A stretch of DNA of 64,000 nucleotides, from positions 567,822-631,821 of the forward strand of contig RDOB01000003.1 in the NCBI GenBank assembly GCA_011364965.1, given 5' to 3'. Source of the stretch: Candidatus Heimdallarchaeota archaeon (GTDB lineage: Archaea > Asgardarchaeota > Heimdallarchaeia > Hodarchaeales > Hodarchaeaceae). The position numbers were made by a program, and so were the translations under genes. This document shows, piece by piece, positions 2 to 8,390 of this stretch (position 1 is the first letter of the stretch; each line of letters begins with the position of its first letter). The notes beneath the pieces were generated by a model. That model saw only the letters and a program-made list of their open reading frames with translations. It did not search any database and was not told the DNA's origin.

Positions 2-709
2 TCACGAAGGTTTCATTCGGAGCTGTTTAAAGCGCTGTTGAACAGCGATCTGTATAGATAATATTTGAAAAGCCATTGAAATGTTCTCCCCTGTCCGTGC
101 ACTCGTTTCAATTAGATGGATTCCGAAACCATAGTTTTCTCGACTTTTTTTATCATATTTTCTAGTTAAATATTCAGCATATTGTCTTGGTACGAGGTTC
201 AATCCACTTTCTTTAAGATCTATCTTATTTGCAACTAATATTAAGGGGATTGGTCCTTTCATATTATGTTCCCATAGTTCTCCTATCCAGTTCTCTAAGT
301 TCTTAAAGGAGTCTCTATTGGTAATATCATAGATGAGCAATGCGCCATTGGTACCCTTATAAAATGTCTGTCGTACCTCAGAAAAATGTGGTTGCCCTGC
401 TAAATCCCATATCTGATATTTAATTTCCCTAGATCCCAAGTTTACCACATATGTTGAAAAATCTGCTCCTATTGTTGCTGAATAAACGGGATTAAATCCG
501 TGACCAATGAACCGTCGTCTTATCGAGGTTTTTCCCACAGCTCCATTTCCGATAAGGACTATTTTCCATAATGTCCTAGAGTCCTTTGGAAAAAGGAATT
601 CGACATCCAAATCAGTTTCAAAATCTGATGGTAAATTAGTAGTAACCCCGTTCAATAGTTCTCTTAAATTATCGCGGAATTCAAATTCATTTTCATTCTT
701 GTTGAACGT
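2..709 (-). CDS. Rab-like small GTPase (ORF track start 655 TTG; frame is open to 712, possible ACG start at 709)
   Basis: G1 GNGAVGKTS, switch I ATIGADF, G3 WDLAGQ, G4 NKID, G5 ETSA; no C-terminal Cys prenylation motif; GGAGG lies 7 nt before ACG 709. Confidence 0.9.
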   Translation of the reverse strand, partial: TFNKNENEFEFRDNLRELLNGVTTNLPSDFETDLDVEFLFPKDSRTLWKIVLIGNGAVGKTSIRRRFIGHGFNPVYSATIGADFSTYVVNLGSREIKYQIWDLAGQPHFSEVRQTFYKGTNGALLIYDITNRDSFKNLENWIGELWEHNMKGPIPLILVANKIDLKESGLNLVPRQYAEYLTRKYDKKSRENYGFGIHLIETSARTGENISMAFQILSIQIAVQQRFKQLRMKPS

Positions 710-712
710 ACT

Positions 713-2236
713 TTATCCTCCTTTAGAATTACCGTCTTGTGGATTCGTCTTCAGCTCTGGAAGAACAATAGAGAAAGTGGATCCTTTTTTATATTCACTC
801 TCAACATAGATTGCTCCTTTATGGAGATACACTAATTCACGAGCTAGTGCTAATCCAATTCCTGTTCCTTGAATGTGTGAAACATCATCTGATCTATAAA
901 ACCTCGTAAAAATGTGTGGAATATCCTTTTTTGAGATTCCCATCCCCTGATCAGTAATTTCAATTAATGTTTCCTTATTCTCTTCTCCAGAAGAATATTT
1001 TCCCTTATAAGACTCGGTGACCTTAATAGTTATATTAGAGTTATTCGAAGAATACTTAATGGCATTATCAAGTATGATTCGGAATATTTGTTCAATCCGA
1101 TGAACATCTCCCATTAATTCTACCTGTTCTGAGCCTAAGACTTGAACGTTAAGTTTTTTCTCATAAATTCGCGGTTCTAATTGAGCTATGACTGAATAAA
1201 TAGTCCCCAAGATATGGTACTTTTCCCATTTCAATTTTAAGCCTTTCCCAGCGTCGAAACGGGATAATATTAGTAGGTCATCCACCTGCTGATTTAATAT
1301 TGCTGCACTTCTCCCCATAGAATTAATTATCTCGATTTTTTCCTCCTCTGTAAGCTTCGTTCCATACCTTTGAAGGTTTATTACTGATAAATTCAACGCA
1401 GAGATAGGAGTTCTAAGTTCATGGGAAACAACAGATACAAACTTCTTTCGGAGATTTTCAAACTCGATAAATGGAGTAATATCCCTAAATTCAATAATAG
1501 AAACAAGAGAATTCTGGTTTATGGAAGAATTTAACGCGACTGTAAATTCTAGAAAGAGATTTGATGTTACTTCAACTACAACCTTTTGGTTAATGTCGTA
1601 AGTTAAGAAAAGTGTTCTAATGGTGTCAAAAAAGGGGTGACCTGTACTAAGTACGAAATTCAATTCACATACTCTTATTTCTGATAAGATTCTTTTGATT
1701 AGTCTTTCTGCTGCTGTATTGATGATAATAGCCTTTCCATCTTGATCTAATACAATTACTCCATCTTTTATATTATTAAGTATCAATTCAATCTGTTTTT
1801 TTTCTCGATTGACAATTTCGCTTTGTGATCTAAGATGATCAATTATTTCTTCTAAGTAATCGTGGCTTAAACCAATCTTATCTTCAAAATCTGTTGAGAA
1901 TGAAATTTGCTTCAATAGAAGAAATATGGAATTTAAATTAATGTACTTTGTTTTGAAATAGAACGAGATAATCTCTCCATTGTTTCTCAAGCAGCGTAAT
2001 ACACCCGTATTATGCATTTTTTCTGAATAAATTGGATATTTGTAAATATAGTCTAAGTCTAGGTTATAGATATATGCTGAAATATCTTTTCCAATCATCT
2101 CTTGTTCTGAATATTTTAATATATCTGTTAGATATATATTAACATATTGTATTTTATGCTCCTTGAGATAAATAATCCCCATATCTAAATTATTTAAGAT
2201 TTCTTGAAATCCTTCTGAATTCACCGTTTGATTCAT
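713..2236 (-). CDS. PAS-PAS sensor histidine kinase (HisKA + HATPase_c), soluble
   Basis: H-box SHELRTP, N-box QIFRIILDNAIKYS, G1 DQGMGI, F-box IFTRFYR, G2 GTGIGL; two PAS-like N-terminal segments. Confidence 0.95.
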   Translation of the reverse strand: MNQTVNSEGFQEILNNLDMGIIYLKEHKIQYVNIYLTDILKYSEQEMIGKDISAYIYNLDLDYIYKYPIYSEKMHNTGVLRCLRNNGEIISFYFKTKYINLNSIFLLLKQISFSTDFEDKIGLSHDYLEEIIDHLRSQSEIVNREKKQIELILNNIKDGVIVLDQDGKAIIINTAAERLIKRILSEIRVCELNFVLSTGHPFFDTIRTLFLTYDINQKVVVEVTSNLFLEFTVALNSSINQNSLVSIIEFRDITPFIEFENLRKKFVSVVSHELRTPISALNLSVINLQRYGTKLTEEEKIEIINSMGRSAAILNQQVDDLLILSRFDAGKGLKLKWEKYHILGTIYSVIAQLEPRIYEKKLNVQVLGSEQVELMGDVHRIEQIFRIILDNAIKYSSNNSNITIKVTESYKGKYSSGEENKETLIEITDQGMGISKKDIPHIFTRFYRSDDVSHIQGTGIGLALARELVYLHKGAIYVESEYKKGSTFSIVLPELKTNPQDGNSKGG

Positions 2237-2248
2237 GTATAGTTCCCC

Positions 2249-3637
2249 CTAAAACCGGATTTCCCAGGTTGTGTGCCGTTCTTCTTTATTGATAATTTTA
2301 GGTGATTCAATATGAAAGGTCTTTAGGATTCCTTCCAAAAAACCAGTGAGTAAAACATCAGTTAATTCACTGGGGATACCCTCATTTTTCCAATCTTGAA
2401 CAGTTAATTCAATTGATTGGCTCCTACGATTCATTATAAATGATTTTGATGTTAATTTTAGAGGTTTCGCGTTCCAGTCACCCTTCAGATAATTTAACCA
2501 AGATTTTTGTAATAATATAGCATATCCTGTTCCTAAAATACGTACTCCCTGTTGGATTGATGGGAGCATATTTGTAAAATCCTCCTGACTTGTTCCTAAA
2601 GTTGGTAGAATAGTAAATTGGGGGAGAATTACCTGTTCAAAATAATCCAATAACTCATCATTTAATAATTTCTGAAGCATTACATCTGGGAGCGAAAAAT
2701 AAATAGTTTGTAATAGAGCTATATTACTACTTTGGTCATTTACGCTTGTAAGGAAAAAAGTTGCGATTTTTAAATAATCTTTAAAGTGCTTTAACACTAT
2801 TTGTATATTTTTATTTAATTCAATTCGTTTTTCCGGATCATACTTGTGTAAAAAAATGGAAAGATTTACATTAGACTCATTTTCATTGCGTACCAATGAC
2901 CATAGCTTATCTAAGTAGTCTAGGGCTGGTAAGAAGGAAACAGGATCCTGTATATCTACAACATAAATTAAGGTTGAGGTTTTTCCCCAATAAGTCATGT
3001 CTTTTAGATATTGACGTCGATAAAGTTCTTGTCCTCCAAAATCCAATATTAAGATATTCTCTTTTAGGAATTCTTCGAAATCTATGTGCTGAACAACTCC
3101 TATGGTTGGCTTAATTGTATGCAAACGATCTTTCGATTCCTTTTTAAAGAATAATTGAATCATAGACGTTTTTCCGGCTCTAGATAATCCTAGAAGAGCT
3201 ATTCTTATGACAGGTTTTTTCATGGATTGAGAAAGCTGAAATTCTTGATTTTTTCGAGTTAATGGACTCAGAATTGGTAAAATTAGTTTTTCAAACATTT
3301 CAGATTCTGGAAAATAGCCTTTGTCTTGGTCTTTCAACAATTGAAATGTTTCTTTAGCAATTAAATCGAAGTATCTCTCTACTTCTTCGGTTTGTATTTT
3401 TTCTTTTAGAAATAAATATAATCCGAAGGTTCTATATGTCCTTACATAGATAATTAAGTCAGAAAACCTAATTTCTTGAATTGCACTTTGAATTACTGCC
3501 TCTGAAAAATTTTGTATCGCAACCATAAATCCAGAGATCAGCTGAGGATCCTGTAAAGTATATTTTGAGCTTTCTTCAGAATAACTCCATACTTCTATCC
3601 CTGCATCCGTAGAGATAGCAAATCTTACAAACATCAT
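2249..3637 (-). CDS. Longin-like domain + Rag/Arf-like small GTPase + putative V4R/Bet3-like C-terminal domain
   Basis: N-terminal DPQLISGFMVAIQNFS (longin-like); GLSRAGKTSM, PTIG, DFGGQ, LIYVVD, HKYD, FFLTSVND; C-terminal LLTGFLEGIL. Confidence 0.8.
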   Translation of the reverse strand: MMFVRFAISTDAGIEVWSYSEESSKYTLQDPQLISGFMVAIQNFSEAVIQSAIQEIRFSDLIIYVRTYRTFGLYLFLKEKIQTEEVERYFDLIAKETFQLLKDQDKGYFPESEMFEKLILPILSPLTRKNQEFQLSQSMKKPVIRIALLGLSRAGKTSMIQLFFKKESKDRLHTIKPTIGVVQHIDFEEFLKENILILDFGGQELYRRQYLKDMTYWGKTSTLIYVVDIQDPVSFLPALDYLDKLWSLVRNENESNVNLSIFLHKYDPEKRIELNKNIQIVLKHFKDYLKIATFFLTSVNDQSSNIALLQTIYFSLPDVMLQKLLNDELLDYFEQVILPQFTILPTLGTSQEDFTNMLPSIQQGVRILGTGYAILLQKSWLNYLKGDWNAKPLKLTSKSFIMNRRSQSIELTVQDWKNEGIPSELTDVLLTGFLEGILKTFHIESPKIINKEERHTTWEIRF

Positions 3638-3646
3638 ACTTCCTTT

Positions 3647-4528
3647 CTATTGTGATTCAATGGTTAGAATATCTGATATTTTCTCCCAATATGAGGATAT
3701 ATTCCAATTCTTTCCAGTTTTTATCAGACCAGAGATGGTCTCAAGTATTTCTTTCACCCTTAAAGACATTAAATAATTAATTTTTGTTGCTAGAGTAACC
3801 AACATAAATTGTCTTTCTCCTCCTCTTACAGAATCATCAGGAATCGAATCAAAATAGAGATATCCATCTTTTTCAATATTATAGATTCTTAATAAAACAC
3901 TCTGAGATTCATAATATTTTGAATGTCCATAGATTGAGACTGTTGTTTGGAACAGTTGAACACCTATTTCCTCGAGGTCAAAATCATCAACTGTATTAGG
4001 ATAGTAATTCTGAATTTTCGGGCCAAAATTTTCATCCCATAATACATAAAATAAAATTACATCATTTTTTTGCTGAATTTTATAATCATTCTTAATTTCA
4101 AGAGATTCTAAAACTGAATTTCTGATTCTCTCACTCATTTTTCTGTATTTTAATCCTTTAGCTATTTTTCCTTTTATTGTTGCAAGTAGATCTTCCTCCT
4201 CAAATGGTTTTATTATATAGTCATCTATCCCGAGAGTTTTAGCAAATCGAACGTCAGCAGGTGAACTTTTTGCAGTCAAGAAAATGAAAGGGATAAGGTT
4301 CCAATCTGGATTGTTAGAAACTTCTTGAAGAAAGTCATAACCATTCATCTCTGGCATCATGATATCGCTAAGGATTAAATCAGGGGGATTTGAGAGATTA
4401 TCTAATATTTCTAAAGCTTCTTTTCCATTTGAGCCTGTATAAACTTTATATCCATTGCATGTCAGAAAAATCCTCATATTTAACATGATTTCTTGATTAT
4501 CTTCAACAACAAGGATTGTATTTGACAA
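3647..4528 (-). CDS. Response regulator receiver fused to a longin/uDENN-like domain
   Basis: VVEDN, PDLILSD55IMMP, FLTAK, KPF; C-terminal WDENFGPKIQNYYP and DDSVRGGERQFML. Confidence 0.9.
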   Translation of the reverse strand: MSNTILVVEDNQEIMLNMRIFLTCNGYKVYTGSNGKEALEILDNLSNPPDLILSDIMMPEMNGYDFLQEVSNNPDWNLIPFIFLTAKSSPADVRFAKTLGIDDYIIKPFEEEDLLATIKGKIAKGLKYRKMSERIRNSVLESLEIKNDYKIQQKNDVILFYVLWDENFGPKIQNYYPNTVDDFDLEEIGVQLFQTTVSIYGHSKYYESQSVLLRIYNIEKDGYLYFDSIPDDSVRGGERQFMLVTLATKINYLMSLRVKEILETISGLIKTGKNWNISSYWEKISDILTIESQ

Positions 4529-4685
4529 AATTTAACCTTCTTTCCACTGTGAATTGATTATTGTAGAATGTTAAGGTCAAAATCCTCTACAACTGTTATT
4601 TATAGCTAATTCCTCATTAAGAGAGAGGGAATTTTTTTCAAACAAGATTCTAAAAAAAATGAAACACTTAAGCTCCTAATGTGAA

Positions 4686-5225: not shown

Positions 5226-6413
5226 ATGTCAAAGAATTTAAAAATACCACGAGATAAAGAAAACGATTATACCAGAGATATGGCAAGAAAACGCTGTGAC
5301 TTCATAAAAGAAGCAACTGGCGTAGAAATGAAACATGTAAATTCTTACTCGTTTGAACCTGACATACTACGGGGAAATATTGAAAACTTTATAGGAGTTG
5401 CTCAGGTACCCATAGGACTCGCAGGTCCCCTGCTGGTGAATGGAGAATATGCCAAGGGTGAATTCTATGTACCCCTAGCAACAAGCGAGGGTACCCTCGT
5501 AGCAAGTTATAATCGTGGAATGAAAATTATAAGAGAGTGTAGTGGTGTAAAAACAACAATTCAGGAAGAGGCAATGCAGCGAGCGCCGGCTTTCATATTC
5601 GATGATGCACGCCAAGCACGCGATTTCGGTATCTGGCTTAAGGAACATTTTGATGAAATTAAGGCTCAAGCAGAATCCACCACAAGGATTGGCAAGCTGA
5701 TAGCTATTGAGCAGTATCATGCTGGGAGATTTGTGTTTACCCGTTTTGATTACACCACAGGCGACGCAGCTGGACAAAACATGACAGGAAAGGCAACTTT
5801 CTTTGCGTGTGAATGGATCAGGCAAGTTCATCCTAATGTAAACAGATATATGATAGATGGAAATTTGTCCACCGATAAAAAGCATTCACAGATAAATGTT
5901 TTGCGAACAAGAGGGAAAAGAGTTACTGCAGAAATAATTATCCCTGAAAAAATAGTTCGCGAACGAATGAACCAATCCCCTCAAAGACTCCAGTACTATC
6001 ATCAGGTAAGCGGCATAGGCACCATGATGTCAGGAGCAGCAAATAATGGTAGTCATTCGGCCAATGGAATAACAGCACTATTTATTGCCTGCGGACAAGA
6101 TGTAGCAAATGTTTCCGAGGGAGCAGCTGCGATAACCTATAGCGAGAGGACAATAGAAGGTAATTATTACTTCTCAGTCACAATACCTGCGATGATCGTG
6201 GCTACCTACGGAGGAGGAACTGGACTGGCAACCCAACAAGAGTGCCTGAAAATGCTGGGGTGTGCTGGGACGGGTAATGTGAAGAAATTCGCTGAGATTG
6301 TTGCAGGTACTGTACTTGCAGGAGAACTTTCTCTTATGAGTGCAATGCGGGTAAACATAAATGGAACTAGCGACTGGATTGAAAGTCACGATAAACTAGG
6401 TCGAAATAGATAA
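5226..6413 (+). CDS. hmgA: Hydroxymethylglutaryl-CoA reductase (class I-like)
   Basis: ENFIG, PLATSEG, TGDAAGQNM, DKK, GQD, GGGT, LAGELS motifs and C-terminal His. Confidence 0.9.
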   Translation: MSKNLKIPRDKENDYTRDMARKRCDFIKEATGVEMKHVNSYSFEPDILRGNIENFIGVAQVPIGLAGPLLVNGEYAKGEFYVPLATSEGTLVASYNRGMKIIRECSGVKTTIQEEAMQRAPAFIFDDARQARDFGIWLKEHFDEIKAQAESTTRIGKLIAIEQYHAGRFVFTRFDYTTGDAAGQNMTGKATFFACEWIRQVHPNVNRYMIDGNLSTDKKHSQINVLRTRGKRVTAEIIIPEKIVRERMNQSPQRLQYYHQVSGIGTMMSGAANNGSHSANGITALFIACGQDVANVSEGAAAITYSERTIEGNYYFSVTIPAMIVATYGGGTGLATQQECLKMLGCAGTGNVKKFAEIVAGTVLAGELSLMSAMRVNINGTSDWIESHDKLGRNR

Positions 6414-6497: not shown

Positions 6498-8390
6498 ATG
6501 AACGAAAATAACAAATCGAAGAAAGGATATATCATTCCTGAAGAAGACTACAAAAAGCAAATGGAATATATCAATATAATGGACCCGTATCCCCCAGACC
6601 TTTTTTACAAACTTTTTCTTGAATACAACAAAAAAGCAAGGACAGAAGTAGGTATCAACTTTGGGAGTATAATTGAGGACGCTGCAGTAAAGTATCCCAA
6701 CAGGATCGCAGTTAAGTGGGACGATAAGGACATACCTGTAACCGCGATGCAGATGATAGTACCCCATATCAAATATAAGGAATTCAATGAAAATATAAAC
6801 CGCTATGCAAACTATTTTCTTAAAATAGGTCTCAAAAAGGGAGATATAATCTGTTTACTGGTTGGTAACAGGGTTGATTCCCTTATACTGCATGCAGCAG
6901 CAGCAAAAGTCGGGGCAATATCATCGATGATGAATACTGGTTGGCGATCTAATACACTTTCATACGCCATAAATCTGAACCCCTGTAAGGCCATCATAAT
7001 TGGCGAAGAGTTGATCAACCTTTTCAACCAAACAAAAGCAGAAATCAATAAAACTGAGGATCAAAAATTATATTTTCTCCCTGATTCGGGTAAAATACAG
7101 ACACCTCCTAATATTATTGATATGAAAGAAGAAATTAAAAACATGTCTATTGATAATCCTCCTACAACCAGAACTATCAGCATCTTCGATCCTTGTCACC
7201 TGGTATTTACCTCAGGTACCACTGGAGGCAAGCCTAAAGCAGCGTTTACTATGCATAAAACCATGATTGAGAATGCGTATGCCTTCGAAATGATTCTTGA
7301 CTTGCAAAAGAATGACACCATCTACGCTCCACTTCCGTTTTTTCACAATACTTTTCTTACAGCAACATGGCCCCCAGCAATGAAAGCAGGTAGTGCAATT
7401 GCTATTCGAAGAAAATTCAGTGCCAGCAGGTTCTGGGATGATACTCGTAAATTCAGGGCTACAAAGTTTTGCTATGTGGGTGAGCTTTGCCGCTATCTCA
7501 TGAATCAAGCTGAAAAACCTGATGACGGATTAAATCCGGTGAATGGGATTTACGGGAACGGCTTGCGACCCGAAGTATGGAAGGCCTTTAAGAAGCGCTT
7601 TAACATCATATCGGTCAATGAGTTTTACGGATCAGCTGAACTACCCAGCGGGTTTGTTAACCAATATAACTTCGATTGTACCATCGGACGAAGCGTGAAA
7701 AAGAACGCGGTGGTAGCTTATGACATCGATAGAAATGAACCAATCAGAGATAAGGATGGATTCATACAAAAAGTCGATTTTGGTAAGGTAGGTCTATGCA
7801 TCTTTGAAGTAACAGAAAAGGAACCGCTCCTAGGATACACAAATAAAGACGATACCGAAAAAAAGCTCCTTCACGATGTGTTCCAGAAGGGAGACACTTG
7901 GTTTAATACAGGTGATCTGATGAGAAACATCGGATACGGACACAGACAGTTTGTAGATAGACTCGGTGACACATTCCGCTGGCACGGCGAGAATGTATCA
8001 ACTACCGAAGTAGAAGCAGTTCTCGATTCCTCAAAACAGATCTACATATCAGCAACATATGGTGTGAAAATACCGAATACTGAAGGACGCGCGGGAATGG
8101 CAGCCGTGGTAATTTTGGATAAAACACTCGAGGAATTTGATTTCAAGAAACTTTCAGAACTACTGAAAAATAAACTGCCCGATTTTGCGATACCAAAGTT
8201 TCTAAGGTTTAAAGCAAATCTAAAACAAACTCCAACAATGAAGATCAAAAAAAATAAGCTGAAAAAAGAAGAATATGACATTACAATCATTAAAGATCCT
8301 GTATACGTGCTTTTGCCAGGTGAAGAGACTTACCAGCCGCTAACCGCCGAGATCCTGAAGAATATGAAAAAAGGAACCTATAAATTTTAA
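6498..8390 (+). CDS. Long-chain acyl-CoA synthetase (FATP/VLACS family)
   Basis: FTSGTTGGKPKAA, YVGELCRYL, GNGLRP, EFYGSAE, FVDRLGDTFRWHGENVSTTEVE, EGRAGMAA. Confidence 0.93.
   Translation: MNENNKSKKGYIIPEEDYKKQMEYINIMDPYPPDLFYKLFLEYNKKARTEVGINFGSIIEDAAVKYPNRIAVKWDDKDIPVTAMQMIVPHIKYKEFNENINRYANYFLKIGLKKGDIICLLVGNRVDSLILHAAAAKVGAISSMMNTGWRSNTLSYAINLNPCKAIIIGEELINLFNQTKAEINKTEDQKLYFLPDSGKIQTPPNIIDMKEEIKNMSIDNPPTTRTISIFDPCHLVFTSGTTGGKPKAAFTMHKTMIENAYAFEMILDLQKNDTIYAPLPFFHNTFLTATWPPAMKAGSAIAIRRKFSASRFWDDTRKFRATKFCYVGELCRYLMNQAEKPDDGLNPVNGIYGNGLRPEVWKAFKKRFNIISVNEFYGSAELPSGFVNQYNFDCTIGRSVKKNAVVAYDIDRNEPIRDKDGFIQKVDFGKVGLCIFEVTEKEPLLGYTNKDDTEKKLLHDVFQKGDTWFNTGDLMRNIGYGHRQFVDRLGDTFRWHGENVSTTEVEAVLDSSKQIYISATYGVKIPNTEGRAGMAAVVILDKTLEEFDFKKLSELLKNKLPDFAIPKFLRFKANLKQTPTMKIKKNKLKKEEYDITIIKDPVYVLLPGEETYQPLTAEILKNMKKGTYKF

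Follow-up and report, generated by a model that had tools for sequence, protein, structure and literature searches.

In eukaryotic cells the nutrient gate of mTORC1 is formed by Rag GTPases together with the GAPs of longin type that act on them (FLCN-FNIP, GATOR1), and longins of the folliculin kind turn Rag GTPases off. In the actinobacterial conservon, which recalls the operon described here, a Ras-like GTPase (CvnD) is tied to a roadblock/longin-superfamily protein (the roadblock CvnB) and a sensor-kinase-like protein (CvnA).

The eukaryotic longin GAPs comprise FLCN-FNIP, acting on RagC/D, GATOR1 (NPRL2-NPRL3), acting on RagA/B, and C9orf72-SMCR8, acting on Arf/Rab (PMC12290439, PMC9473554). 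Arg164 of FLCN is the catalytic GAP finger for RagC (PMC9473554), and a GP motif has been described as specific to GAP longins (PMC12290439). Longins of FLCN/SMCR8 type with this motif have been proposed as possible GAPs for Rag/Arf-related GTPases in Heimdallarchaeia (Traffic 2025, PMC12290439, section 2.6). Asgard archaea also contain Rag-like GTPases to which roadblock or longin domains are fused (LokiRagO, 8yl2; LokiRagM, 8zla; Tran et al. 2024, PMC10933270), although GTPases of MK-D1 do not as a rule share operons with their own regulators, and the cognate regulators of Asgard GTPases are generally not assignable from genome layout (PMC10933270). NPRL2-like longins fused to two-component signalling domains have been described in Asgard archaea, together with the inference that growth and nutrient control runs through two-component systems with ‘eukaryotic’ regulators; most ESP genes lie outside conserved neighbourhoods (Liu et al., bioRxiv 10.1101/2020.10.19.343400, Fig. 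5c for the fusions).

The operon described here, from an Asgard archaeon of Hodarchaeota type, lies at one end of the window, the whole stretch of 64,000 nucleotides that was analysed. On balance it probably encodes a cytoplasmic two-component system whose output passes through an FLCN-type GAP longin to small GTPases rather than to transcription.

Organization of the operon

The operon consists of four co-oriented genes within 2-4528, in the order P0001, P0002, P0003, P0004 in the ORF list (Table 1). The ORF coordinates reproduce the gaps reported in the first-pass annotation, 9 nt between P0001 and P0002 (3638-3646) and 12 nt between P0002 and P0003 (2237-2248), and its statement that the Rab frame opens directly after the kinase stop also stands, the frame being open from 712 and the kinase TAA lying at 713-715. 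The first canonical start of P0004 is nevertheless a TTG at 655 (2-655, 217 aa); relatives have an ATG 7-14 nt past the kinase stop and are called at 236-240 aa. A possible TATA box, TATAAATA, is placed 69-76 nt upstream of the P0001 TTG start. The unit is delimited by a convergent 504-aa ORF downstream and a divergent HMG-CoA reductase gene upstream. Pfam domains, gaps and bounding neighbours agree with the earlier description of a two-component pair with Rag-like and Rab-like GTPases in one operon. Catalytic motifs are complete in all four proteins, and none of them has a predicted transmembrane segment (KD19 maximum ≤1.2).

The whole genome (2.97 Mb) holds just 6 kinase-type and 47 small-GTPase ORFs (15.8 small GTPases per Mb), so that a kinase and two GTPases inside 4.5 kb are far from a chance arrangement. 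Its single REC-longin gene adjoins its single longin-Rag gene. An assembly artefact is excluded because contigs from runs of several studies contain the stretch whole. The same genome also encodes a stand-alone FLCN/SMCR8-type longin with the GP motif (G000:C12, 442-aa frame).

Table 1. Coordinates of the genes, domains and sites of the operon.
Feature	Residues	Position	Strand	Details and basis
P0001, response regulator with longin output	293 aa	3647..4528	-	TTG start; Pfam Response_reg
P0001 REC	1-120	4169-4528	-	Pfam Response_reg, 91.5 bits
P0001 linker helix	111-142		-	
P0001 longin domain	about 155-290	3650-4066	-	AF2 topology
Asp55 codon, predicted phospho-acceptor	55	4364..4366	-	SDIMMP motif
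W164-D165...G169-P170, WD/GP motif, longin strand 1-2 loop	164-170	4019..4039	-	family conservation
Arg235 codon (RGG), candidate arginine finger	235	3824..3826	-	profile alignments to FLCN
P0002, longin/Rag-like GTPase/C-terminal domain	462 aa	2249..3637	-	Pfam Gtr1_RagA
P0002 N-terminal longin-like domain	1-126	3260-3637	-	AF2 topology
P0002 Rag-like GTPase	140-315	2693-3220	-	Pfam, motifs
P0002 C-terminal αα-ββ-α-ββ domain	316-462	2252-2692	-	AF2 topology
P0003, soluble PAS-PAS histidine kinase	507 aa	713..2236	-	Pfam PAS, HisKA, HATPase_c
P0003 HisKA	263-330	1247-1450	-	Pfam, 46.7 bits
P0003 HATPase_c	376-494	755-1111	-	Pfam, 92.3 bits
P0004, Rab-like small GTPase		2..712	-	Pfam Ras; stop 2-4
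TATAAATA, possible archaeal TATA box		4597..4604	-	read from sequence

The receiver and its longin output domain

Pfam recognizes Response_reg alone in P0001 and no DNA-binding domain, in keeping with its initial description as a response regulator that lacks a DNA-binding output. The active site of the receiver is complete (E9, D10, D55, T85, K107). In the alignment of homologues, which share the start position of P0001, D55 reaches 90% conservation or more and neither T85 nor K107 varies; this conservation and the SDIMMP motif bear out D55 as the receiver aspartate. A fold search matches the domain to BeF3-bound receivers (Z about 19-20, rmsd 1.3-1.9). In the AF2 model (pLDDT 79.9) the C-terminal domain has the order ββ-α-βββ-α-α, with strands at 158-165, 169-176, 209-215, 220-230 and 238-247 and helices at 185-200, 252-271 and 277-289. 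This agrees with the β-β-α-β-β-β-α-α order of longins, the fold-search lists being filled by REC matches. The longin topology that had been expected of this domain and of the N-terminal domain of P0002 is present in both AF2 models.

Among 68 members of the longin family the WD..GP motif is formed by W in 66, D in 58, G in 65 and P in 63, and G169-P170 is invariant in the alignment of P0001 homologues. An arginine occupies position 235 in 55/68 members. P0001 145-293 falls below the cut-off of Pfam Folliculin, PF11704 (12.0 bits, E 0.19, against 23.3 bits), and has no match to NPR2 (PF06218) in Pfam; PF11704 is the sole Pfam family that recurs over the 68 members (5/68 at E ≤1, best E 0.0015). 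The family profile of the P0001 longin matches, over its model positions 16-156, Asgard proteins that are themselves above the Folliculin cut-off (E 1.8e-11 to 1e-9). Aligned with hhalign, the family and these FLCN-like Asgard proteins give a probability of 97.0 (E 1.1e-10), and the two motifs line up: Arg235 (RGG) pairs with their ARGG, and the GP of P0001 with their FD..GP. The top PDB match of the Asgard FLCN-like profile is human folliculin (E 0.0014), where the arginine falls on FLCN Arg164 (‘SLARG’).

Because P0001 itself lies under the PF11704 cut-off its link to FLCN is transitive, and the mapping of Arg235 onto Arg164 likewise passes through two profile alignments, by sequence comparison alone. 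With this qualification the refined reading of the output domain is a putative GAP longin of FLCN/NPRL2/SMCR8 type. A DENN or NPRL2-specific C-terminal domain is absent, P0001 stopping about 4 residues past the last longin helix.

The first-pass annotation had offered the longin as a GEF or a GAP. The presence of WD..GP and the mapping of Arg235 to FLCN Arg164 favour the GAP side, and a phospho-switched GAP role for P0001 is better supported than a GEF role. As a phospho-controlled GEF or non-catalytic scaffold, the REC-longin would bind a nucleotide-free or GDP-bound Rab- or Rag-like GTPase, or merely tether it, in the manner of TRAPP, Mon1-Ccz1, DENN or Ragulator-type longin/roadblock platforms, and the conserved arginine would be structural. 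Characterized longin modules are indeed mostly GEF platforms or adaptors (PMC12290439), Arg235 is replaced in 13/68 family members, and P0002, a longin with a second α/β domain, stands beside a Ras/Rab-like gene at every flanked locus, an arrangement that recalls a GEF-plus-substrate pair. Against this, WD..GP and an arginine in the register of FLCN Arg164 are features of GAP longins that TRAPP, adaptin and DENND longins lack (PMC12290439), and neither the P0001 longin nor any of the 68 members matches a TRAPP or Mon1 family in Pfam. A GEF or scaffold role is considered unlikely.

The kinase, the GTPases and the proposed mechanism

P0003 is recognized by Pfam as PAS/HisKA/HATPase_c and carries all the boxes of a histidine kinase: the H-box SHELRTP at 271 (His272), the N-box DNAIKY at 390, G1 DQGMG at 429 and G2 GTGIGL at 457. 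With no transmembrane segment, it answers to the soluble PAS-PAS kinase first described. Adjacency suggests that it is the cognate partner of P0001. The fourth gene was rightly called Rab-like; P0004 scores 140.6 bits against Pfam Ras, and its best solved relative is a Thorarchaeota Rab (7ezb, 1e-35), followed by Rab21, Rab10, Rab8A, Rab2 and Rab11. Its motifs are GNGAVGKT, T80, DLAGQ, NKID and TSA. It has no C-terminal prenylation Cys, nor a Cys anywhere in the protein.

P0002 matches Gtr1_RagA (PF04670) with 63.7 bits against a cut-off of 22, and Arf with 50.8 bits. Its GTPase motifs include G1 GLSRAGKT, T178, DFGGQ and a Rag-type G4, HKYD at 264, in which H264, K265 and D267 are invariant among 30 homologues. 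Both P0002 and P0004 have G1-G5 including the DxxGQ glutamine. The best Foldseek matches of P0002 are LokiRagO (8yl2, 1.7e-12), RagA/RagC and Gtr1, and in the Atlas it is closest in shape to fungal Gtr1/Gtr2 clusters, over 214-232 aligned residues. As to the roadblock dimerization domain in which Rag proteins end, superposition of the whole chain on Rag by Foldseek covers about 350 columns, but with an rmsd of about 13. The first-pass description of a longin-GTPase-V4R-like protein stands for the longin topology and the Rag-like GTPase and falls for V4R. The C-terminal domain has no V4R match in Pfam (30 members) or among PDB entries of the V4R family, and comparison by hhalign with V4R domains from the same order reaches a probability of 0.1. 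Its predicted AF2 topology is compatible with the two helices and four-stranded sheet of V4R, and its language-model neighbours are V4R clusters, at 0.76 and 0.75 only, which is a lead and nothing further.

Complex prediction of P0002 with GTP and Mg and P0001 145-293 gave an ipSAE of 0.40 (runs 0.39, 0.46 and 0.40) against 0.00 for the best control, classed as ‘weak support’ and lying in a score range where wrong passes are commoner than right ones. At least 43% of contacts recur between the runs, and the partner pLDDT is at least 75. The mark used was reached by 58 of 80 solved complexes and 2 of 110 mismatched pairs, and at scores of 0.60 or below by only 7 of the 80 solved complexes and by both mismatched pairs. 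The longin-longin heterodimer, named in the first-pass annotation as the usual working form of such modules, thus has a weak complex prediction here, and since the N-terminal domain of P0002 does not resemble the GAP longin at profile level (prob 0.6), an FLCN-FNIP-like heterodimer of P0001 and P0002 is a conjecture.

For phosphotransfer, binding, GAP activity, the target GTPase and the downstream steps we infer the following course. P0003 would sense an intracellular cue and phosphorylate Asp55 of P0001, which may change the dimer or orientation state of the linker helix and hence of the longin domain. P0001 would then act as a GAP: Arg235 of its longin, located beside the WD..GP loop, would enter the nucleotide pocket of a GTPase from the same operon and stimulate GTP hydrolysis. 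The likeliest target would be the Rag-like domain of P0002, whose non-catalytic N-terminal longin may serve as the docking partner, and P0004 could be an alternative or second target.

The signal might instead flow in reverse or in a loop, with GTPases that act on the kinase or ahead of it and a REC-longin that closes a feedback, as in the actinobacterial conservon or the MglA/MglB/RomR polarity modules. Odin relatives have a Ras-like GTPase fused directly to HisKA/HATPase, longin-kinase fusions occur in some family members, the kinase usually sits between the GTPase and the REC-longin in an otherwise variable order, and part of the MglA-MglB-RomR literature places REC proteins in GTPase modules. 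However, P0003 has PAS sensors of its own and no Pfam-recognizable GTPase-binding domain, and the complete phospho-acceptor site of P0001 makes it a conventional kinase substrate. Such a flow, which would be compatible with the GAP model rather than exclusive of it, seems distinctly unlikely.

Conservation and comparison with known systems

The gene set is conserved across Asgard classes, a point that the first-pass annotation had proposed to survey. REC-longin, kinase, Ras/Rab-like and longin-Rag genes occur together at all ten longin-Rag loci with enough flank (10/10; Hod, Odin and Thor), in varying gene order. A simpler module of GTPase, kinase and REC-longin is common among genomes of Loki type, and a reciprocal search recovers it in genomes of Thor, Hermod and Loki. 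The clade formed by the small GTPases of this common module does not include the P0002 GTPase domain, and the GTPase target is therefore not transferable by orthology. A same-strand GTPase lies within 4.5 kb at 30/40 REC-longin loci (10/13 genera) compared with 4/20 control windows (Fisher p 7.5e-5, kin not being independent). Among 93 cluster representatives of the longin, 77 are fused to REC, 4 to Ras/Arf and 3 to a kinase; Rag-longin fusions are present at L128 and L172.

These data bear on whether the genes might simply be neighbours that lack direct biochemical coupling, the longin acting on something besides the operon GTPases. Small GTPases are abundant in Asgard genomes, as the density in this one illustrates, some control windows contain a GTPase too, and no GTPase gene adjoins P0014 and P0013, which are distant homologues of the REC-longin. 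The very short gaps, the retention of the set in Hod, Odin and Thor alike although its order is reshuffled, the direct GTPase-longin fusions and the enrichment over controls nevertheless make a lack of coupling highly improbable.

A more far-reaching reading, very unlikely in our estimation, is that the operon forms a complete phosphorylation-gated two-GTPase relay prefiguring Rag/FLCN-GATOR nutrient signalling. P0002 would by itself constitute a Rag-like switch, with its longin and C-terminal α/β domains as a platform of TRAPP/Ragulator type that would be the GEF or effector site of the Rab-like GTPase next to it, and resetting of P0002 would fall to the REC-longin, an FLCN-like GAP under kinase control. 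The Ras/Rab-like gene beside every longin-Rag gene of Hod, Odin and Thor would then represent a pre-eukaryotic Rag-to-Rab cascade.

Returning to the GAP model, the locus would provide a small soluble four-protein set with a candidate GAP, a control switch at D55 and two candidate substrates. Since the FLCN-kind longin and the GTPases share one operon, the candidate regulator is open to testing alongside its probable targets; co-encoding and cross-class conservation make the GAP role and target of Asgard GP-motif longins directly testable in vitro. If the model holds, a prokaryotic His-Asp relay can drive eukaryote-type GTPase regulation. This idea is already in the literature, and the value of the locus lies in its testability and specific variant, not in a new principle.

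Like the eukaryotic longin GAPs, P0001 has a GP before strand 2, an arginine in the register of FLCN Arg164 and a predicted longin fold; its neighbour is a Rag-type GTPase (HKxD G4) with a motif-less second longin as a possible partner. In contrast to them, the operon lacks a DENN domain, DEPDC5/WDR41-type subunits and the lysosomal Ragulator context, and control is predicted to come from His-Asp phosphorylation of the fused receiver, not from amino-acid sensors. The Heimdallarchaeia GP-motif longins carry the same motifs and attract the same GAP proposal, their partner being left open (PMC12290439), whereas P0001 is fused to a receiver and has partner candidates in its operon. The P0002 GTPase is closest in fold to the Asgard Rag-like GTPases (PMC10933270), RagA/C and Gtr1/2, but differs from the former in its three-domain architecture (longin, GTPase and C-terminal α/β) and its place in an operon with a candidate regulator.

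Myxococcus MglA/MglB/RomR-RomX similarly combines prokaryotic Ras-like GTPases, roadblock/longin-superfamily regulators and receiver proteins. That system and the conservon use other GTPase families (MglA, CvnD), have a roadblock in place of the FLCN-type longin and lack a receiver-longin fusion. The fusions of Liu et al. are proteins of the same kind as P0001, a receiver with a GATOR1/FLCN-type longin. The novelty first claimed for a two-component/longin hybrid linked to Rag/TORC1 origins was set too high, as both the fusions and the mTORC1-origin inference had appeared in Liu et al. (2020). Set against the fusions and statements cited from that work, the fixed GTPase operon, the WD..GP/Arg mapping and the association of longin-Rag with Rab-like genes are found only here; what is new is the fixed pairing of a REC-longin and kinase with a longin-Rag protein and a Rab-like GTPase.

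Architecture of the four-gene unit

The best-supported reading of the four-gene unit is a cytoplasmic His–Asp relay whose output would be the inactivation of a GTPase. The window that contains the unit is G000:C11:567822-631821, part of G000, an archaeal MAG of 2.97 Mb (87% complete) whose close relatives are labelled Hodarchaeota/Hodarchaeales. Gaps of 9 and 12 nt separate the first three genes, and the frame of the fourth is open straight after the kinase stop. The first canonical start of this frame is a TTG at position 655, while its relatives have an ATG 7–14 nt downstream of the kinase stop. A convergent ORF with no match in a Pfam search flanks the unit on one side, a divergent HMG-CoA reductase gene on the other. 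In relatives (the contig carrying P0007, and locus L012) an opposite-strand ORF of 489–498 aa occupies the position of the convergent ORF, a conserved neighbour. The HMG-CoA reductase and acyl-CoA synthetase genes belong to ordinary lipid/isoprenoid metabolism, outside the unit. The element TATAAATA, located 69–76 nt 5' of the P0001 gene start, may represent a promoter element. A scan for sigma-70 promoters and terminators stayed at chance level, the bacterial sigma-70 model not being applicable to an archaeon. The stretch occurs in DNA from marine-sediment or mangrove sites, and no RNA data set is listed as containing it.

Features of the four-gene unit, its flanks and related fusion genes
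Feature	Location	Strand	Description
P0001	3647-4528	-	REC-longin response regulator; ORF, 293 aa, TTG start
P0002	2249-3637	-	Longin/Rag-like GTPase/C-terminal domain; ORF, 462 aa
P0003	713-2236	-	Soluble PAS-PAS histidine kinase; ORF, 507 aa
P0004	2-655/712	-	Rab-like small GTPase; ORF
Convergent ORF	L009:10516-12030	+	504 aa; beyond the window's left end; 29-nt overlap with 3' end of P0004 gene
HMG-CoA reductase gene	5226-6413	+	415 bits; upstream, divergent
AMP-binding acyl-CoA synthetase gene	6498-8390	+	Upstream, divergent
Rag–longin fusion	L128:9160-12063		Rag-like GTPase and GAP-type longin in one large chain; Promethearchaeota MAG
Rag–longin fusion	L172:8021-10858		Rag-like GTPase and GAP-type longin in one large chain; Hodarchaeota MAG
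GTPase–histidine kinase hybrid	L092:3551-5317		Ras-like GTPase fused to HisKA/HATPase_c; Odinarchaeota contig
GTPase–histidine kinase hybrid	L211:11002-12246		Ras-like GTPase fused to HisKA/HATPase_c; Odinarchaeota contig

The catalytic residues of all four proteins are in place. Pfam identifies Response_reg at residues 5–118 of P0001, with E9, D10, D55, T85 and K107 all present, and PAS, HisKA and HATPase_c in P0003, where H272 and the N, G1 and G2 boxes form a complete set. Residues 141–305 of P0002 match Gtr1_RagA and Arf and retain GLSRAGKT, T178, DFGGQ and the Rag-type G4 motif HKYD; the fold of this domain is nearest to LokiRagO, RagA/C and Gtr1/2. P0004 matches Ras, keeps GNGAVGKT, T80, DLAGQ, NKID and TSA, and has a Thorarchaeota Rab and eukaryotic Rabs as its best solved relatives. 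It contains no cysteine. No segment of any of the four proteins is hydrophobic enough for a membrane helix.

Conservation of the gene set

The close relatives of P0001 (longin identity 61–75%) stand in an identical four-gene order, whereas its more distant relatives (45–53%) keep the adjacent kinase but not the GTPases. Of 400 genomes in the phylum, 177 match the longin profile. Neighbourhoods were compared over 7 kb either side of 40 longin genes from 13 genera, with 20 windows elsewhere on these contigs as controls, and were annotated with HMMs built from the alignments of this analysis. A same-strand small-GTPase gene lies within 4.5 kb at 30 of the 40 REC-longin loci compared with 4 of the 20 controls (Fisher p 7.5e-5, a value that overstates the case because related genomes are not independent). 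GTPase-positive loci occur in 10 of the 13 genera, and the kinase is adjacent at 27 of the 40 loci. Loki-type (Promethearchaeota) genomes have the most frequent form, a Rag/Arf-like GTPase of ~180 aa followed by the kinase and the REC-longin.

A search for loci related to the P0002 family returned mostly relatives of the GTPase domain only and served as a reciprocal neighbourhood test. Starting from these Rag-like GTPases, the module of GTPase, kinase and REC-longin was found again in Thor, Hermod and Loki MAGs, together with the two direct Rag–longin fusions of the table. The three-domain P0002 family itself (longin-Rag, ~460 aa) is conserved in Hod, Odin and Thor MAGs. The shared operon described by the first-pass annotation holds as a gene set across these lineages: REC-longin, kinase, Ras/Rab-like and longin-Rag genes are present at all ten P0002-family loci with enough flank (besides the window, three close relatives and G068:C430, these are one contig from Thor, two from Odin and two others). 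As a rule the genes run REC-longin(s), kinase, Ras, longin-Rag(s), an order from which the window departs in that the longin-Rag gene now stands ahead of the kinase; retention of the set despite this reshuffling argues for functional coupling.

A tree of Rag-like GTPase domains separates the P0002 family, as a clade, from the common module's small GTPases, with modest deep-node support (73–90). The P0002 GTPase was for this reason rejected as an orthologue of those small GTPases, and the receiver-longin/kinase pair has accordingly been combined with different Rag-like lineages.

By the HMMs of this analysis, G000 encodes 47 small-GTPase ORFs (15.8 per Mb), only 6 ORFs of histidine-kinase type and ~9 receiver ORFs. 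Two-component genes are few in this genome, with one pair of them dedicated to the four-gene operon. The REC-longin and the longin-Rag gene each occur just once in G000, next to each other.

Variant arrangements were also observed. At eight loci (L176, L177, L178, L180, L183, L187, L188 and L192) a stand-alone receiver gene (~120–139 aa) adjoins an FLCN-like gene of 420–450 aa that exceeds the Pfam Folliculin cut-off (family f7, genus g17), an arrangement that resembles the REC-longin fusion in split form. The Odin GTPase–kinase hybrid genes share their neighbourhood with REC-longin and longin-Rag genes. Several relatives, L053 (G059:C388), L093, L212 and G068:C430, carry tandem REC-longin duplicates, two copies of ~300 aa side by side, that precede a hybrid kinase of REC-PAS type; there are also two or three copies of the longin-Rag gene.

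Longin and terminal domains of P0001 and P0002

AlphaFold2 models place the longin-order topology bb-a-bbb-a-a in residues 155–290 of P0001 and 1–126 of P0002. Pfam matched nothing in the C-terminal half of P0001. A search of 1.84 billion proteins with this domain gave 217 cluster representatives; among the 93 of at least 250 aa, the fusions are to a receiver (77), TPR (6), a Ras/Arf GTPase (4) or a kinase (3). In an alignment of 68 such domains W164 is retained in 66, D165 in 58, G169 in 65, P170 in 63 and R235 in 55. The GAP longins, namely FLCN, NPRL2, SMCR8 and C9orf72, are marked by an arginine finger combined with a GP motif that precedes strand 2; this signature has also been described in Heimdall 'FLCN/SMCR8-type' longins, for which the authors name no partner GTPase (PMC12290439, Traffic 2025).

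Within the phylum, 51 of 301 genomes encode proteins above the Pfam Folliculin cut-off; G000 is among them, with a 442-aa frame. The 68-domain profile matches these proteins across nearly its whole length (E 1.8e-11 to 1e-9), and hhalign pairs it with a profile of 16 of them at a probability of 97.0 (E 1.1e-10), setting WD..GP on FD..GP and RGG on ARGG. Searched against the PDB, the 16-protein profile finds human folliculin first (E 0.0014) and then SMCR8 (E 0.78), with its conserved arginine aligned to FLCN Arg164, the catalytic finger for RagC (PMC9473554). The 68-domain profile found nothing meaningful among PDB sequences, only a designed helical protein (E 9). An Atlas feature search with the P0001 longin (best 0.80) included one cluster with NPR2 on 19% of its members, a lead only. 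The P0001 longin is filed, from sequence comparison, as probably homologous to the GAP-longin class and likely to work in the same way. It was not adopted as an FLCN or NPRL2 orthologue, since P0001 alone scores 12 bits against Pfam Folliculin, under the cut-off, has no DENN domain, and gave fold matches (Foldseek PDB and wide VIA PDB searches with the full-length model) that, among those listed, were all receiver domains covering model residues 1–137. A second GAP-type longin protein in G000 (L004, G000:C9:188928-190874; 635+ aa) has an N-terminal longin 30% identical to that of P0001, followed by TPR repeats, with no GTPase or kinase gene within 6 kb.

The N-terminal domain of P0002 is a longin by predicted topology. 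Its family alignment has no GP and no conserved arginine, and hhalign against the GAP-longin profiles gave probabilities of 0.6 and 0.4, showing no profile similarity. Profiles of both terminal domains matched the PDB and Pfam at chance level only. The C-terminal domain (residues 316–462) is modelled as aa-bb-a-bb. Its earlier description as V4R-like was not upheld by sequence, there being no Pfam or PDB match and, in an hhalign comparison with true V4R domains from the same order, a probability of 0.1; a V4R/Bet3 identity is compatible with the predicted topology and with a weak lead from a language model (0.76), and it is equally possible that the domain is a derived roadblock like that of Rag GTPases.

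A putative relay and its comparison with known systems

We infer phosphotransfer, binding, GAP activity and the physiological signal. The PAS kinase P0003 would phosphorylate D55 of P0001, and the change would be passed to the longin domain by a 30-residue helix that extends receiver helix 5 (residues 111–142). The longin would then offer its Arg235, beside the WD..GP loop, to one of the operon's GTPases. Of these, P0002 is favoured as the target through its Rag-like domain: Rag GTPases are the substrates of FLCN and GATOR1, the partner of the REC-longin in most modules is a GTPase of Rag/Arf-like type, and P0002 provides a predicted second longin as a candidate docking partner. Prediction of P0002 with GTP and Mg together with P0001 145–293 lends weak support to such a complex (ipSAE 0.40, runs 0.39, 0.46 and 0.40; three controls 0.00), with at least 43% of contacts in common between runs and a partner pLDDT of at least 75. 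Of 80 solved complexes, 58 reached the benchmark mark for this score, as did 2 of 110 mismatches; only 7 of those 80, but both mismatches, did so with a value of 0.60 or below. The Rab-like P0004 is a possible second or alternative substrate, and some modules (L026, L029 and L054) pair the REC-longin with a Ras-type GTPase.

The literature search returned no description of a conserved GTPase–kinase–REC-longin cassette, or of its variant with longin-Rag and a Rab-like GTPase. On receiver-longin operons with GTPases it found only Myxococcus literature and a statement by Liu et al., who report NPRL2-like longins fused to two-component domains and argue that Asgard growth control stays centred on two-component systems (bioRxiv 10.1101/2020.10.19.343400). 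Asgard Rag-like, longin and TRAPPC3 proteins have been described (Tran et al., PMC10933270), and in Loki strain MK-D1 small GTPase genes generally lie outside operons with roadblock, longin or TRAPPC3 genes (PMC10933270). The system of the window follows an ordinary principle and lends itself unusually well to testing.
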